Positions 127 to 9,108 of a stretch of 37,128 nt of DNA are shown here, piece after piece. The position numbers were made by a program, and so were the translations under genes. The notes under the pieces were generated by a model. That model was not told where the DNA came from. It searched no databases and saw nothing but the letters and a program-made list of their open reading frames with translations. This stretch comes from Pseudomonas phage 5400. Location of the stretch: sequence record PQ758390.1. One strand, given 5' to 3'. The stretch's first letter is position 1. Every line of letters begins with the position of its first letter.

Positions 127-151
127 AGCCCGCACTCTGCGGGCTTTTTTG
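127..151 (+). terminator. intrinsic terminator (host side)
   Basis: Stem gcccgca / tgcgggc followed by tttttt. Confidence 0.5.
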
Positions 152-261
152 TGCTTGGGTAGCCGGAGATCAAGGCCAGGTATCCGCTGCCGGAGGCGAT
201 CCTAGGCGAATGACAGGCTGTCATAAAGCTGGCATTACCGAGCCAAAACAGCCCATTCAGG

Positions 262-297
262 CACAAAAAAGGCACTTGCGATAATCGCTAAGTGCCT
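262..297 (-). terminator. intrinsic terminator just downstream of the tmRNA-like 3' end (minus strand)
   Basis: On the minus strand, imperfect hairpin GGCACTTAGCG-ATTA-TCGCAAGTGCC followed by UUUUUU (plus-strand A-run 265-270). Confidence 0.5.
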
Positions 298-314
298 GAT
301 TTTGTTAGTGCATT

Positions 315-340
315 TGGTGGAGCCGGGGGGATTTGAACCA
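315..340 (-). other. ssrA: 3'-terminal fragment of tmRNA (ssrA) / prophage att core (attL or attR)
   Basis: Minus strand reads GGTTCAAATCCCCCCGGCTCCACCA (T-loop, acceptor 3' strand, CCA). I remember this as the 3' end of Pseudomonas-type tmRNA. Upstream on that strand the T-stem partner is gctgg instead of ggggg and the tmRNA body is absent, so this is only the duplicated core. Confidence 0.6.
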
Positions 341-414
341 GCGTCTAGTCCTGTGTTTTCGCGGCCTCCAGATCGGAAGCTGTCATAACGCTGTCATTCT
401 GGTCGGAAACTCGG

Positions 415-443
415 TTGGCATCCAGAGTGATGGTGTGTATAAA
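415..443 (+). promoter_or_regulatory. sigma70-like promoter for the low-GC moron cassette
   Basis: TTGGCA (415-420), a 17-bp spacer, then TATAAA (438-443), about 45 nt upstream of the ATG at 491. Confidence 0.45.
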
Positions 444-490
444 TCGCACCTGAGCAGGATACGGTAGGCGCTTGACAGCATGGACCTGAG

Positions 491-904
491 ATGACCGACC
501 ACAATTTCACCAACACTACGATCACAGAAACAGTCGTTCTCTCCGAGCCGCTGAGTGGAAACTCTATCGCTTCTATACAGGCAATTTATCCTTTTACAGA
601 AGCTGATTATGTGAGGCTGGATAGTCAGGGCAATGTAGTGAAAAACTGGGCGACGAGCTTTTTATTTGTAGCTATTGGCTCGGCGGTCACTCTTCTCCAA
701 AACGTCTATAAAGACGGCCTTAATACCCCGAATGATGTTGCGTCAGGGGATGTGATAGTGTTATCAATTTTATCTCTGATTACTGCGTTATTGTTTGTTG
801 TTAGCGCGTTTGTGCCCAATGAGAAGAAGAAATTAATGAAGCGAATAGGGAAGTTTTTCAAAGATTCGGCAAGCCAGAATCATTTTATTAGGGGCGCAAA
901 GTGA
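491..904 (+). CDS. small membrane protein, 2 predicted TM helices, unknown function (moron)
   Basis: 137-aa ORF. Hydrophobic segments WATSFLFVAIGSAVTLLQNVY and VIVLSILSLITALLFVVSAFV. About 42% GC in a genome of about 64%. Own promoter upstream. Confidence 0.75.
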   Translation: MTDHNFTNTTITETVVLSEPLSGNSIASIQAIYPFTEADYVRLDSQGNVVKNWATSFLFVAIGSAVTLLQNVYKDGLNTPNDVASGDVIVLSILSLITALLFVVSAFVPNEKKKLMKRIGKFFKDSASQNHFIRGAK

Positions 905-1350
905 TAACGAAAAGTAATCTTCCAAAAGGTTATATTCCTTATTCGAAGGTTAAACTTTGCAGCAATTTGCTCAGCGGCAGCACCTTCATTCTTTCGGTGG
1001 ATGAAGTTCTGCCGCTCCTAGTTGGAAAAGGAAATAAGCCTCAAATTTGGATACAGGCTATTGCTGATGCGAATATGAAGTCTTTTGTACCGATTGTAGA
1101 ATCCTCCATCCCACTGTTTCCGTTTGTCCGAGTCACCACTGAGTCTGGTGTCGTCCTCGTGTTTGTTAATGATCAAGTCATTATGTCCATTCGATCTGAG
1201 GTTGATGACGAAATTAATATTTTTCAGATGGACTTAAGGCCGATTGGGCTAAATATAGTCGGCGACGAAAAATCTCTTCGTTCCGGAGGCATGGAATTCA
1301 GCAACAGCACTTTTTCTGGGATGGGAACTTTTATGGGTTTTTCTTTGTAA
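901..1350 (+). CDS. hypothetical protein, unknown function (moron partner)
   Basis: 149-aa ORF. GTG start overlaps the stop of the upstream gene (GTGA). Low GC. Converges on the integrase 3' end. Confidence 0.7.
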   Translation: MITKSNLPKGYIPYSKVKLCSNLLSGSTFILSVDEVLPLLVGKGNKPQIWIQAIADANMKSFVPIVESSIPLFPFVRVTTESGVVLVFVNDQVIMSIRSEVDDEINIFQMDLRPIGLNIVGDEKSLRSGGMEFSNSTFSGMGTFMGFSL

Positions 1351-2518
1351 GAGTTTCGGTAAAGTCCTGCATGTCGATGGGCCGCCACATCACTTCTGCT
1401 TTTTCGCCCGCGTTGTAGTCAGCTGATGGCATCCAGCGACCGTATATGCGTGCAATCATGGTCCAGTCACTGTGCCCCATCTGCTGCGCCACCCACATCG
1501 GATGCTCACCAGCAGACAGCATCATCGAAGCGTAGGTGTGGCGCGTCTGGTACGGCCGGCGGTAGCGCACACCAGCCTTCTTCAGCGCATACATCCAGAG
1601 CGTCTTTCGAATCGGGCCGTCACCGGCCCAGCGCTCTCCCGTCCTCGGGTTCTGAAAGACTTCCTGGTTGGCCAGGTAGGTGAATGCCTTCTGCGCCTTC
1701 AGGGCTTCCAGCGCAGGGCCGAGCAGCTTGATGCTGCGCCGGCCGGAGGTGGTCTTCGTCACCTCCGCTTTTCCCTTGGCTGCCTGGGTCATGGCGCGGG
1801 TGACGCGCACCTCGCCGCGGAGCCAGTCAATATCGCCCCACTCGAGGCCGACGAGTTCGCTGGTGCGCATCCCCGTCCAGAATGCGAACTGCACCAGGTT
1901 CCGCCCTTGACCATCGAGGGAACTCAGAATCGCCTGCTGCTCTTCCGGCGAGAATGGGTCAACGTCGTCGACCTTGACCTCTCCCTTCCTTGCGTACGTC
2001 CAGCCGGCGAGAGGGTTGCTGTCGATCAGTTCCTCTTCCATCGCATCGCTGAGGGCCGAGCGTAGGCAGCTCTGGATATTGCTGAGCGTCTTGTTGCTCA
2101 CCTTCAGGGTGTCCAGCCAATCCTTGACGGCCTTCCGCTTCAGGTCGACCACCATGGCGGACCCTAGGGCCGGCACCAGACGAAGCTCTACAATCTTCCT
2201 GTAGCCCTCGAAGGTGCTGCTGGAGACGTGCTTGCGCTTCGACTCAAGCCATCGGCCAAGGAATCCCGCAACCGTCTCGCGTGACGCCTCAGGCGCAAAC
2301 TTGGCGGCGCGCGGAGATCCAGGAAATGTCACCGAGTAGTCGAAGGTACCGGCGGCGATCGCATGTTCGATAGCCGCCTTGTGCTGCTCTGCTCGCTTCA
2401 GGTTAGTGGCGGTGGGCTTGAGCGAGATGCGCTCCCGGCACCTGACGCCGCGATACATGAACGTGATTTCGATACTCGAATCAGAGACCGCCCTGACTCC
2501 CCGCCCATCTCTACCCAT
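1331..2518 (-). CDS. int: tyrosine recombinase / phage integrase
   Basis: C-terminal RHTYASMMLSAGEHPMWVAQQMGHSDWTMIARIYGRW carries the R-H-R-Y catalytic pattern. N-terminal IEITFMYRGVRCRE matches the P4/CP4-57-type integrase N-domain. Sits next to the att core. Confidence 0.95.
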   Translation of the reverse strand: MGRDGRGVRAVSDSSIEITFMYRGVRCRERISLKPTATNLKRAEQHKAAIEHAIAAGTFDYSVTFPGSPRAAKFAPEASRETVAGFLGRWLESKRKHVSSSTFEGYRKIVELRLVPALGSAMVVDLKRKAVKDWLDTLKVSNKTLSNIQSCLRSALSDAMEEELIDSNPLAGWTYARKGEVKVDDVDPFSPEEQQAILSSLDGQGRNLVQFAFWTGMRTSELVGLEWGDIDWLRGEVRVTRAMTQAAKGKAEVTKTTSGRRSIKLLGPALEALKAQKAFTYLANQEVFQNPRTGERWAGDGPIRKTLWMYALKKAGVRYRRPYQTRHTYASMMLSAGEHPMWVAQQMGHSDWTMIARIYGRWMPSADYNAGEKAEVMWRPIDMQDFTETLTKKNP

Positions 2519-7560: not shown

Positions 7561-7920
7561 TTACGCCCTCATTTTTTCGAGGAACTCCTTCACCGGAGCG
7601 GTGCTGGATTCGCTAACAGTTTTCTCGGACGACTCGATTTCATTCAGTCGCTGACAAATGATTTGCTTGATCTCGGATCGAGCAAACCGATTGAGTAGGT
7701 CGCGGATCATCGGCTGATAGCCGACTCCGTGATACTCGGCAATTTTCTTGAGATCGTTTACTAATTGCTTTTGTAGGCGAATGGAAATCAGTTGGAGGCC
7801 GAGCGCGTCATCCACCTCTTGCTTTGAGCCAGTGGAGACTTGGGCGTGCGCTTCGGTCGTCCCGAGCTCGCCGCTTTCCCACAGTTCAACGTTGCTCATA
7901 GCTTCCTCACTCTTTGTCAT
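7561..7920 (-). CDS. brnA: BrnA-like antitoxin (C-terminal RHH/CopG-like domain)
   Basis: ISIRLQKQLVNDLKKIAEYHGVGYQPMIRDLLNRF resembles BrnA ITIRLDDDVLDWFRAQ...YQTLINDALREYV. It lies downstream of the toxin gene and overlaps it as ATGA. AT-rich. Confidence 0.65.
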   Translation of the reverse strand: MTKSEEAMSNVELWESGELGTTEAHAQVSTGSKQEVDDALGLQLISIRLQKQLVNDLKKIAEYHGVGYQPMIRDLLNRFARSEIKQIICQRLNEIESSEKTVSESSTAPVKEFLEKMRA

Positions 7921-8210
7921 TTGATTGCAAATTTTCTGTAGATACGTGTTTCTTCAGCACTGGGTTCGTACGCTGTTTTCAGGAAAACCTTACCATTCTC
8001 GAAGACGAAACAGATCTTTAGGGCCCTGCCAGCGTTTGTTTCGGCTACGAACCATTTCGTTACAGGGTCTGTCTTGTGATCCTCTCGCAGGTCGATCAGG
8101 TGTTCACCCTCGCAGTTCTCGAAGCATTGCTCGATTTCTCTGCGGCTCACGCCACCATGCTTTTCCTGAAGCTTCCTCTCGATGGCGTCCGAAATGATCA
8201 GATTTTCCAA
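7917..8210 (-). CDS. brnT: BrnT-like (DUF497) ribonuclease toxin
   Basis: KLQEKHGGVSRREIEQCF and KWFVAETNAGRALKICFVFENGKVFLKTAYEPSAEETRIYRK follow the BrnT pattern (KHGVSFEEA...; ...IRIISARxATxxERxxY). Toxin-first order as in brnTA. The start appears to be TTG. Confidence 0.6.
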   Translation of the reverse strand: MENLIISDAIERKLQEKHGGVSRREIEQCFENCEGEHLIDLREDHKTDPVTKWFVAETNAGRALKICFVFENGKVFLKTAYEPSAEETRIYRKFAIK

Positions 8211-8322: not shown

Positions 8323-9108
8323 TCAGTGTCGCCGCCGGCGCATCACCGACCACCAGAACACCCACCCGATCACGCTGATGTCACCGGCACGCATCTGGTC
8401 CCTGGTGTACTCCTCATCGGGGTACTCGTCCCGGTTGTAGCTGCGCAACCGGATGCCGCCGCCAGGCAGGCGATAGACGAATTTCACCCGCAGCAGGTCG
8501 TCATGCTTCAGGGCGTAGATCTCGCCGTCGGTGATCGCGTTGACTGACATATCGATCCCGATGACGGCTCCGTCGGCAATGAGCGGTTCCATGCTGTTGC
8601 CGGTGACGTTAACGCAGACGGCGCATTTCGGATTCACTCCTGATTCGTGCAGCACGGATCTCGGGAACCTGATTTTGCGCTTTGCGAGCTCCAGATCTGG
8701 AAATCTGCCACCGCCCGCAGCCACCTGAATTTCGTCGAAGTAGGGGATCTCTACCTCGTCGAGATCAAGTGGATCACCTTCTTCCCACGTGGATAAAGGC
8801 ATAAGATCTCTCTCGGCGTCGGCGTCGGCGTCGGCGGAGGGCAAGGGGGACACGGCTTTTGCCTGAAAGTGAGGCGCTTCAAAAATATGCTTGCCATGTA
8901 ATACATCAAGCCAGCCGCGCGGTAAGTCAAAGCATTCTTCGATGTGCCTGGCGAGCTTGTTGCCGATGTTCTTCGTTGGGTTCGAGCCAATCAGCCTGCT
9001 GACCTGAGTTGGTTCACGGTCAATGCGGCTGGCGAACGCACCTGTCCCCCCCTCCTTCTCTGCAAGTGAAAGGGCATTTGTACGGCGGATAGTACTGATG
9101 TCAATCAT
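8323..9108 (-). CDS. CI-like prophage repressor (XRE-type HTH plus S24 LexA-like peptidase)
   Basis: N-terminal HTH LSLAEKEGGTGAFASRIDREPTQVSRLIG. C-terminal S24 motifs VTGNSMEPLIADGAVIGID and GEIYALKHDDLLRVKFVYR. Divergent from the cro-like gene. Confidence 0.9.
   Translation of the reverse strand: MIDISTIRRTNALSLAEKEGGTGAFASRIDREPTQVSRLIGSNPTKNIGNKLARHIEECFDLPRGWLDVLHGKHIFEAPHFQAKAVSPLPSADADADAERDLMPLSTWEEGDPLDLDEVEIPYFDEIQVAAGGGRFPDLELAKRKIRFPRSVLHESGVNPKCAVCVNVTGNSMEPLIADGAVIGIDMSVNAITDGEIYALKHDDLLRVKFVYRLPGGGIRLRSYNRDEYPDEEYTRDQMRAGDISVIGWVFWWSVMRRRRH

Follow-up and report, generated by a model that had tools for sequence, protein, structure and literature searches.

A prophage-borne unit of one soluble and one small membrane protein is an architecture already known. 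RexA and RexB of phage lambda form such a two-gene unit, which the lysogen expresses and which is believed to depolarise the membrane upon infection, so that the cell dies or is arrested, and the RexA-like Sucellos (SclA/SclB) is also a two-gene integron cassette (10.1101/2024.07.02.601686). In another described defence, Septu type II, a retron reverse transcriptase occupies the position upstream of PtuA (PMC8565338). The locus analysed here, positions 415-1350 of Pseudomonas phage 5400 (record PQ758390.1, whose whole stretch of 37,128 nucleotides (nt) is called the window below), is a cassette of two genes, ORF1 and ORF2, which resembles RexAB in being prophage-borne and in joining a cytoplasmic protein (ORF2) to a small membrane protein (ORF1). 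The two proteins, the fold of ORF2 and its modular use are undescribed. We give roughly even chances to the pair being a new prophage-expressed anti-phage system of the abortive-infection (Abi) type, with ORF2 as sensor and ORF1 as membrane effector; it is a well-supported candidate for a new mechanism, not a demonstrated one.

The window is about 99-100% identical to phage vB_PaeS-D14B and to the prophage record OQ658364, and its att-int region is 99.4% identical to phage JBD68. By this likeness the phage is identified as a Pseudomonas aeruginosa temperate siphophage of the JBD68/D14B type, and ORF1 and ORF2 as gp29 and gp30 of JBD68. The cassette and the gene that faces it are laid out in this way:

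415-443, plus strand: sigma-70-type promoter-like site TTGGCA-17-TATAAA, put forward on sequence, conservation and rarity
491-904, plus strand: ORF1, ATG start, 137 amino acids, proposed membrane effector or anchor; JBD68 gp29, phrog_12702
901-1350, plus strand: ORF2, GTG start, 149 amino acids, proposed sensor or core module; JBD68 gp30, phrog_12462
1331-2518, minus strand: int, tyrosine integrase (Pfam Arm-DNA-bind_2, E-value 5e-21; Phage_integrase, 2e-16)

A preliminary description of the window had taken this stretch for a translationally coupled, low-GC two-gene unit, and on both counts it was right. The guanine-plus-cytosine (GC) content of 415-1350 is 0.429 against 0.628 from 1351 to the end, and no other 936-nt stretch of the window has a lower value, this one being 4.7 standard deviations under the mean; at third codon positions GC is 0.47 in ORF1 and 0.42 in ORF2, as compared to 0.76 in int. 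Such atypical base composition is one of the marks of a moron, and the stretch is a horizontally acquired accessory cassette of foreign origin. The stop codon of ORF1 and the start codon of ORF2 share four bases, GTGA, as can be read from the sequence, and a Shine-Dalgarno GGGG lies 6 nt upstream of the ORF2 GTG. ORF2 and int are convergent, their 3' ends share 20 nt (1331-1350), and the terminator scan finds no terminator between the two genes, so that a terminator of its own, another mark of a moron, is one that the cassette lacks. In other Pseudomonas prophages the two genes converge in the same way. A transcript begun at the cassette promoter would continue antisense into the 3' end of int.

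What makes these two genes a unit, rather than accidental neighbours, is the constancy of their association. Among 32 genome loci, drawn from one-genome-per-species contigs and scanned with alignment A1 (the broad alignment A4 being too diverse for the purpose), a gene for a protein with two transmembrane (TM) helices, like ORF1, precedes the ORF2 homolog in 29, with an overlap of -1, -4 or -8; of the three loci without the pair, one has a frameshift, another is truncated and the third is a form linked to Septu genes. The pair is also present in all 20 viral contigs, in one of which it was recognised by eye only. The paired loci belong to Gamma-, Beta- and Alphaproteobacteria, Desulfuromonadota, Bacteroidota, Fusobacteriota and Planctomycetota (at least five phyla), the pairing persists where the identity of ORF1 has fallen to 14-30%, and the GC content of the pair is below that of its flanks at 33 of 36 loci. 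Compared to their Pseudomonas homologs, ORF1 and ORF2 have ratios of nonsynonymous to synonymous substitution (Ka/Ks) of 0.11-0.13 and 0.07, respectively, and this range (0.07-0.13) indicates strong purifying selection on both proteins.

The company kept by the pair is far more varied. In Pseudomonas it fills the att-int slot of prophages with several different backbones, and on chromosomes it stands as isolated islets among housekeeping genes. Acinetobacter phage vB_AbaSI_1 has it as a moron amid its cluster of head-tail structural genes, and a mobilizable Acinetobacter plasmid of 12.5 kb carries it not far from an Abi gene of the PD-T4-5 kind and from the toxin RelE. In two integron-like arrays (loci L018 and L009) the same cassette, with GTTAGAG... 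at its 5' side and an attC at its 3' side, follows different upstream cassettes. These attC sites were confirmed by reading the sequences, as a strict attC regular expression missed them, and identical cassette boundaries behind different upstream cassettes mean that the cassette is mobile. The integron-cassette form belongs to those two homologs; the copy in the window has no attC and sits in a phage. The preliminary description had allowed for the homologs turning out to be core phage genes, or for the two genes not being paired elsewhere. Instead we find islets, integron cassettes, small plasmids and morons in unrelated phages, with the pairing kept almost throughout. The pair is, then, a real and selected unit that moves as one piece.

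As a side observation on one of these arrays, the cassette just upstream of the ORF1/ORF2 cassette in L018 (2809-3509) is itself a two-gene unit, of an 87-amino-acid Cas2-like protein and an overlapping 152-amino-acid two-TM protein; the match of the former to Pfam CRISPR_Cas2 (1.1e-4) is below threshold.

As for the proteins themselves, ORF1 had been described as having a soluble N-terminus of 50 residues and two TM helices, and hydropathy and an AlphaFold2 model agree with this: a soluble N-terminal part of about 50 residues is followed by a first TM helix at about 49-75, a second at about 85-107 and a basic C-terminal helix with nine lysines or arginines. This layout indicates an inner-membrane helical hairpin with both ends inside (N-in/C-in), joined by a predicted periplasmic loop of about 10-15 residues that is poorly conserved. 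Two motifs are recognisable outside the membrane, Q..YPxT..D(F/Y) in the N-terminal tail and LPNxxKKxM..I..xF in the C-terminal amphipathic helix, and the first 30 residues are disordered when ORF1 is modelled alone. ORF1 is a full-length member of phrog_12702 (E-value 4e-69), whose function PHROGs gives as 'unknown'; searches of Pfam, NCBIfam and PADLOC return only DUF4064 and bacteriocin-immunity matches in its TM region, both of them far below threshold.

ORF2 has no TM segment, no signal peptide and no match in Pfam, NCBIfam or PADLOC, and it is a full-length member of phrog_12462 (E-value 2e-77), for which PHROGs also gives the function 'unknown'. Its AlphaFold2 model is all-beta, with about 14 strands (predicted local distance difference test score 93.2, predicted template modelling score 0.87), and Foldseek comparison of this model to the Protein Data Bank (PDB) and to BFVD gives no meaningful match in either (best E-value 0.25 in both cases); the family profile finds nothing among PDB sequences. 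The family is a large one, with 487 clusters at 50% identity in an exhaustive profile search, 365 of them at an E-value of 1e-10 or less, nearly all of which are stand-alone proteins of 145-165 amino acids, and among 145 members no Pfam family is found at an E-value of 0.01 or less, save for one chance match. Its conserved motifs are LPxxYxPY, CSN, GxG..PxIW and DLRPIGLN..GD, and the conserved positions (P8, C20, N22, G42, P47, W50 and D111-L-R-P-x-G-x-N) look structural or binding-like. No catalytic signature is apparent among them, which fits a binding or sensing module.

The family-wide conservation of the LPxxYxPY N-terminus also makes GTG at 901 the true start of ORF2. This corrects the existing records, in which the gene is truncated or missing: in JBD68, gp30 is annotated from an internal ATG as 127 amino acids (KY707339, 21738-22121), whilst in D14B (BK061476, 37298-37456) and OQ658364 (8528-8695) only fragments of 53-56 amino acids are annotated.

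The preliminary description had considered ORF2 a soluble protein of 149 amino acids with no recognisable domain, and the pair an undescribed system. The first is borne out by Pfam, NCBIfam, PADLOC, PDB and BFVD, and the second holds against the same collections: PADLOC-DB v2.0.0 has no match for ORF1 or ORF2 at an E-value of 1 or less. In the library of papers searched there is no mention of the genes, of their PHROG identifiers or protein accessions, or of a two-gene system in P. aeruginosa that would match. The genes are already in public records, as hypothetical proteins only. One candidate for a described relative was considered and set aside, namely the homolog of the JBD26 gene zip that is said to be in JBD68. 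Zip homologs are described from the ends of the late operon, with a conserved promoter of their own (10.1101/2024.03.05.583538), and JBD26 is not among the matches of a DNA search with the cassette region. Judged on position only, identity with this homolog is unlikely, albeit unconfirmed.

In a handful of loci, relatives of ORF2 turn up in the company of known defence genes. A 476-amino-acid homolog (locus L020) consists of an ORF2 domain, pentapeptide repeats and a TIR domain (Pfam TIR_2, 2.5e-23; PADLOC ThsB, PDC-S66), and still stands behind an ORF1-like gene with a 4-nt overlap. It is flanked (L020, 1-5296 and 8034-12716) by a very large protein of more than 1,800 amino acids with no Pfam match on one side, and on the other by a Cas4-like nuclease of the PD-(D/E)XK type together with an NTPase of the nSTAND class; the locus has the look of a defence island from an uncultured organism. 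Another ORF2 homolog bears C-terminal TPR repeats, and in Vreelandella the pair is found behind DUF4145, DUF6650 and TIR_2-like genes. In two further organisms an ORF2-like gene, lacking the two-TM partner, is directly upstream of the Septu genes ptuA and ptuB:

L051, 2173-4862, Pseudoalteromonas fuliginea: ORF2-like gene, PtuA and PtuB, next to an integrase
L060, 2442-5131, Acinetobacter lwoffii plasmid pALWED3.3: ORF2-like gene, PtuA and PtuB, next to HigBA

PtuA is recognised in these loci with an E-value of about 1e-82 and PtuB with 1e-57 and 4e-74, and PADLOC has no match for the proteins of L059 and L060 that resemble ORF2 or ORF1. The Septu-linked forms of ORF2 keep the core motifs and have lost both the N-terminal LPxxYxPY and GxG, of which LPxxYxPY is conserved in the forms paired with a two-TM protein. 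This loss, taken together with the disorder of the first 30 residues of ORF1 alone, fits an interface between the tail of ORF1 and ORF2, to which LPxxYxPY and GxG would contribute the contacts. The arrangement ORF2-like, PtuA, PtuB, recurring as it does in two unrelated replicons, may be an undescribed Septu subtype in which a small beta protein replaces the retron reverse transcriptase.

The remaining piece of evidence concerns expression. A strong near-consensus promoter had been reported upstream of ORF1. The site is there, with TTGGCA at 415-420, TATAAA at 438-443 and a spacer of 17 nt, and it is not easily put down to chance: only three sites matching at 10 of 12 positions exist in the whole window, both strands considered (about 1.9 expected), and a correctly oriented one would fall in the 160 nt ahead of ORF1 with a probability of about 0.009. 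JBD68, L012, L016 and L017 have the two hexamers and their 17-nt distance unchanged where spacer and flanks vary, even though the cassette proteins of the Pseudomonas loci with invariant hexamers are just 82-83% identical. The adjective 'strong' goes beyond this, and position -7 is A where T is usual; a promoter scan that demands T at the last -10 position leaves this site unlisted. The cassette has, therefore, a promoter-like site, and with it a putative promoter of its own.

How such a system could work may be outlined as follows. The pair would be expressed from the prophage in the lysogen, translational coupling would keep ORF2 in fixed proportion to ORF1, the two proteins would interact, and ORF1 would be kept inactive through its N-terminal tail. 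ORF2, as cytoplasmic sensor or regulatory core, would detect a cue from an infecting phage, upon which ORF1, once triggered, would disrupt the integrity of the inner membrane or the membrane potential and so stop the infection. The defence function, and the decision as to which of the two proteins senses and which kills, we infer.

A wider reading, which we hold tentatively and with less conviction, is that the ORF2 domain is a modular one, widespread and so far unrecognised, which senses phages or regulates immunity and can be attached to three or more unrelated killing modules: by default the two-TM protein, but also the pentapeptide-TIR fusion and the Septu PtuA/PtuB. Under it, the ORF2-like protein of the Septu form would play the part that retrons play in Septu type II, and JBD68 gp29/gp30 would be the founding member, open to experiment, of a new defence family that phages, plasmids and integrons have spread over bacterial phyla.

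Several observations weigh against an abortive-infection system of this kind. The commonest neighbour family, when the two nearest genes on each side are considered at 31 loci, is phage integrase (6 of 110 genes), and at this two-gene radius no PADLOC family is enriched beyond group II intron reverse transcriptases. As a large number of copies are islets on their own, the evidence from defence islands comes from a handful of loci. The proposal that a membrane effector with a soluble partner is defence cargo is thus favoured by association only (the TIR fusion, the Septu linkage, the integron and plasmid contexts and some defence islands), and finds no support in the immediate neighbourhoods at large; likewise, the pair sits in defence islands at few loci and not as a general enrichment. 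The -10 element lacks the conserved final T, and the integron copy, which has only about 20 nt ahead of ORF1, would have no promoter of its own. The TIR fusion keeps its two-TM partner, from which it follows that the effector role may not fall to ORF1, or not to ORF1 alone. Finally, P-FimU-deficient lysogens of JBD68 are sensitive to every heterologous F10-like phage tried, and wild-type lysogens do not block DMS3 or D3112 (PMC12952977), which means that gp29/gp30 give no visible protection against those phages.

These difficulties invite other explanations. The best of them, though we regard it as unlikely, is that the pair is a toxin-antitoxin (TA) or addiction module, with ORF1 as a membrane-damaging toxin and ORF2 as its protein antitoxin, whose main role is to stabilise the prophage, small plasmid or integron array that carries it and not to stop phages. 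Many TA systems double as Abi defences, and to that extent this explanation overlaps with the abortive-infection system proposed here. Integrons are known to be stabilised by TA systems (10.1101/2024.07.02.601686), integron arrays contain the pair, as do small mobilizable plasmids, on which RelE/ParE and HigBA modules adjoin it, and its compact, translationally coupled form, with the fixed stoichiometry that this gives, is what an addiction module would look like. However, Pfam-type domain searches find neither a DNA-binding nor a known antitoxin domain in ORF2, no known toxin domain is found in either protein (Pfam and NCBIfam for both, and the Pfam scan of the ORF2 family), and the integron copy is too tight to house an autoregulated promoter. 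A domain that is fused to TIR, and that stands ahead of PtuAB where there is no ORF1, does not behave like an antitoxin dedicated to ORF1.

Other temperate phages encode membrane superinfection-exclusion proteins that block incoming phages, and a cassette in the att-int conversion slot of a prophage, with a promoter-like site and a predicted small inner-membrane protein, could belong with them: ORF1 would block DNA entry or receptor function at the envelope, and ORF2 would be a helper. Protection by surface or pilus modification is, moreover, common among P. aeruginosa prophages, Zip and P-FimU being examples (PMC12952977; 10.1101/2024.03.05.583538). Yet the pair spans phyla with very different envelopes and occurs outside phages, its conserved core is the cytoplasmic ORF2 domain, which is also linked to cytoplasmic TIR and PtuAB, and the periplasmic loop of ORF1 is short and poorly conserved. 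Given also that JBD68 lysogens without P-FimU are unprotected against related phages, envelope exclusion seems to us improbable.

Of slightly lower standing still is the possibility that the cassette serves a non-defensive conversion of the host's membrane physiology to the advantage of the lysogen, or that it acts mainly by an antisense transcript damping the expression of int. It is the convergence of ORF2 and int, with its 20-nt overlap, missing terminator and conservation in other Pseudomonas prophages, that speaks for the latter; but the pair is conserved where no integrase is nearby, which means that it is the proteins that are selected and not an antisense RNA, and this agrees with the strong purifying selection on both, whilst the TIR and Septu associations point to immunity. 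Counter-defence, whereby the pair would inhibit host immunity to let the phage or mobile element settle in the cell, deserves consideration as mobile elements use the same variable slots for defence and for anti-defence genes, but is very improbable given that the pair also lies on chromosomal islets and in integron arrays without a phage, that ORF2 is fused or linked to defence effectors and not to inhibitors, and that the position of the promoter would suit prophage expression over early lytic expression.

As for the place of the cassette in the phage genome, the following features lie upstream of it:

1-123: 3' end of the last late (tail) gene
127-150, plus strand: intrinsic terminator past that gene, from the terminator scan
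217-236, plus strand: tandem GCTGKCAT motif of the P arm, GCTGTCATAAAGCTGGCATT, from a pattern count in the window
265-302, minus strand: hairpin and T-run just 3' of the tmRNA-like end, seen in the sequence, picked up as a stem-loop and conserved in JBD68
314-339, minus strand: attP core, TTGGTGGAGCCGGGGGGATTTGAACC, reverse complement of the 3' end of ssrA, the transfer-messenger RNA (tmRNA) gene (T-arm, acceptor, CCA)
379-398, plus strand: tandem GCTGKCAT motif of the P' arm, GCTGTCATAACGCTGTCATT, from the pattern count; conserved in diverged Pseudomonas loci

The prophage records D14B and OQ658364 diverge from the window at about 314, and the attL/attR repeats of 17 bp that are annotated in OQ658364 fall on 323-339. 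At the attR of OQ658364 the core runs on into a complete tmRNA gene (ARAGORN), and hence the phage integrates into the 3' end of ssrA; an att core that is the ssrA 3' end, adjoined by a tyrosine integrase, is the constitution of a tmRNA-targeting integration module. In the window itself, att site included, tRNA and Rfam scans find no complete tRNA or tmRNA gene. Positions 1-339 are identical to the phage side of the OQ658364 attR, with tail-gene end, terminator and P arm, and therefore the window holds an intact attP (P arm, core and P' arm) and not a junction with the host. It follows that the sequence derives from a phage or a circular form, or else from a tandem lysogen. The preliminary description, which placed the genes at the att-int junction of a prophage, was thus correct in that they lie between the att core and int, and mistaken in that the junction is attP and not an attL between prophage and host.

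The cassette follows the late operon directly, with terminators in between; the one at 127-150 insulates it from late transcription, and the hairpin at 265-302 is a phage-supplied terminator for the ssrA gene that is re-formed upon integration. In the integrated prophage the cassette is the outermost element. The motif GCTGKCAT-N3-GCTGKCATT has two copies in the window, one on either side of the attP core, where chance would give none, and these are probably arm-type binding sites of the integrase. The P'-arm copy lies 17 nt upstream of the -35 hexamer of the cassette, and integrase binding there might influence the cassette promoter.

That this slot exchanges its cargo is shown by phage CF60a (vB_Pae_CF60a, MK510969), which has the att arm and integrase in common with the window but a different two-gene cargo in the slot, encoding a protein of 137 amino acids and a 'prophage ps3 protein 01' of 147 (L081, 560-1426, minus strand). 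Neither has any similarity to ORF1 or ORF2 in hidden Markov model comparison, and the 147-amino-acid protein presumably resembles the DUF4065/Panacea antitoxins. At the DNA level the cassette is found in just four of 50,697 phage records, and, as with other morons, it is present, absent or replaced among related phages. The slot had been called a classic one for cargo, and this fits.

Elsewhere in the window, a second low-GC patch (about 0.49-0.52) at 7561-8210 on the minus strand holds two small genes, for 97 and 119 amino acids, just downstream of that of an S24-peptidase CI-like repressor (8323-9108). The 119-amino-acid protein has a sub-threshold CopG_antitoxin match (2.9e-5; 25.1 bits, the cut-off being 28), and the two genes are probably a TA-like moron co-transcribed with the repressor.

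If the pair is indeed a defence system, a family with no relatives in sequence or fold joins the known repertoire. In that case a single sensor domain serving a membrane protein, a TIR domain and the Septu nuclease would also be a new case of its kind, and would help to explain how Septu-type effectors are triggered. This could be put to the test quickly, as JBD68 is a laboratory phage of PAO1 for which lysogens, deletion tools and RNA sequencing data of the lysogen (PRJNA1364051) exist. Independently of this, the attP-int slot of these ssrA-integrating phages is documented as a site of cargo exchange.

How, then, does the cassette compare to what is known? With the two-TM effector modules of signalling defence it shares the combination of a small membrane effector with a cytoplasmic sensing part, and with Thoeris the ThsB-like TIR domain that one ORF2 homolog bears. 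In contrast to those systems, the genes in the window encode no cyclase, SAVED, SLOG or TIR domain, the PADLOC models do not match them, and there is no sign of a nucleotide signal for the cassette. Its likeness to Septu type II and to retron type I-A consists in the two loci where an ORF2-like gene takes the place of the reverse transcriptase, an analogy which suggests that an upstream sensor or regulator may feed the Septu effector; it differs from Septu in that the cassette of the window has neither PtuA nor PtuB, ORF2 is not a reverse transcriptase, and the linkage is seen in those two loci only (L051 and L060). RexAB is close in architecture, although the Pfam models of RexA and RexB do not match ORF1 or ORF2 at an E-value of 1 or less, and there is no homology to Sucellos either. 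RexB has four TM helices, against two in ORF1, ORF2 is a 149-amino-acid all-beta protein without a match in the PDB, and in the cassette it is the membrane protein that comes first.

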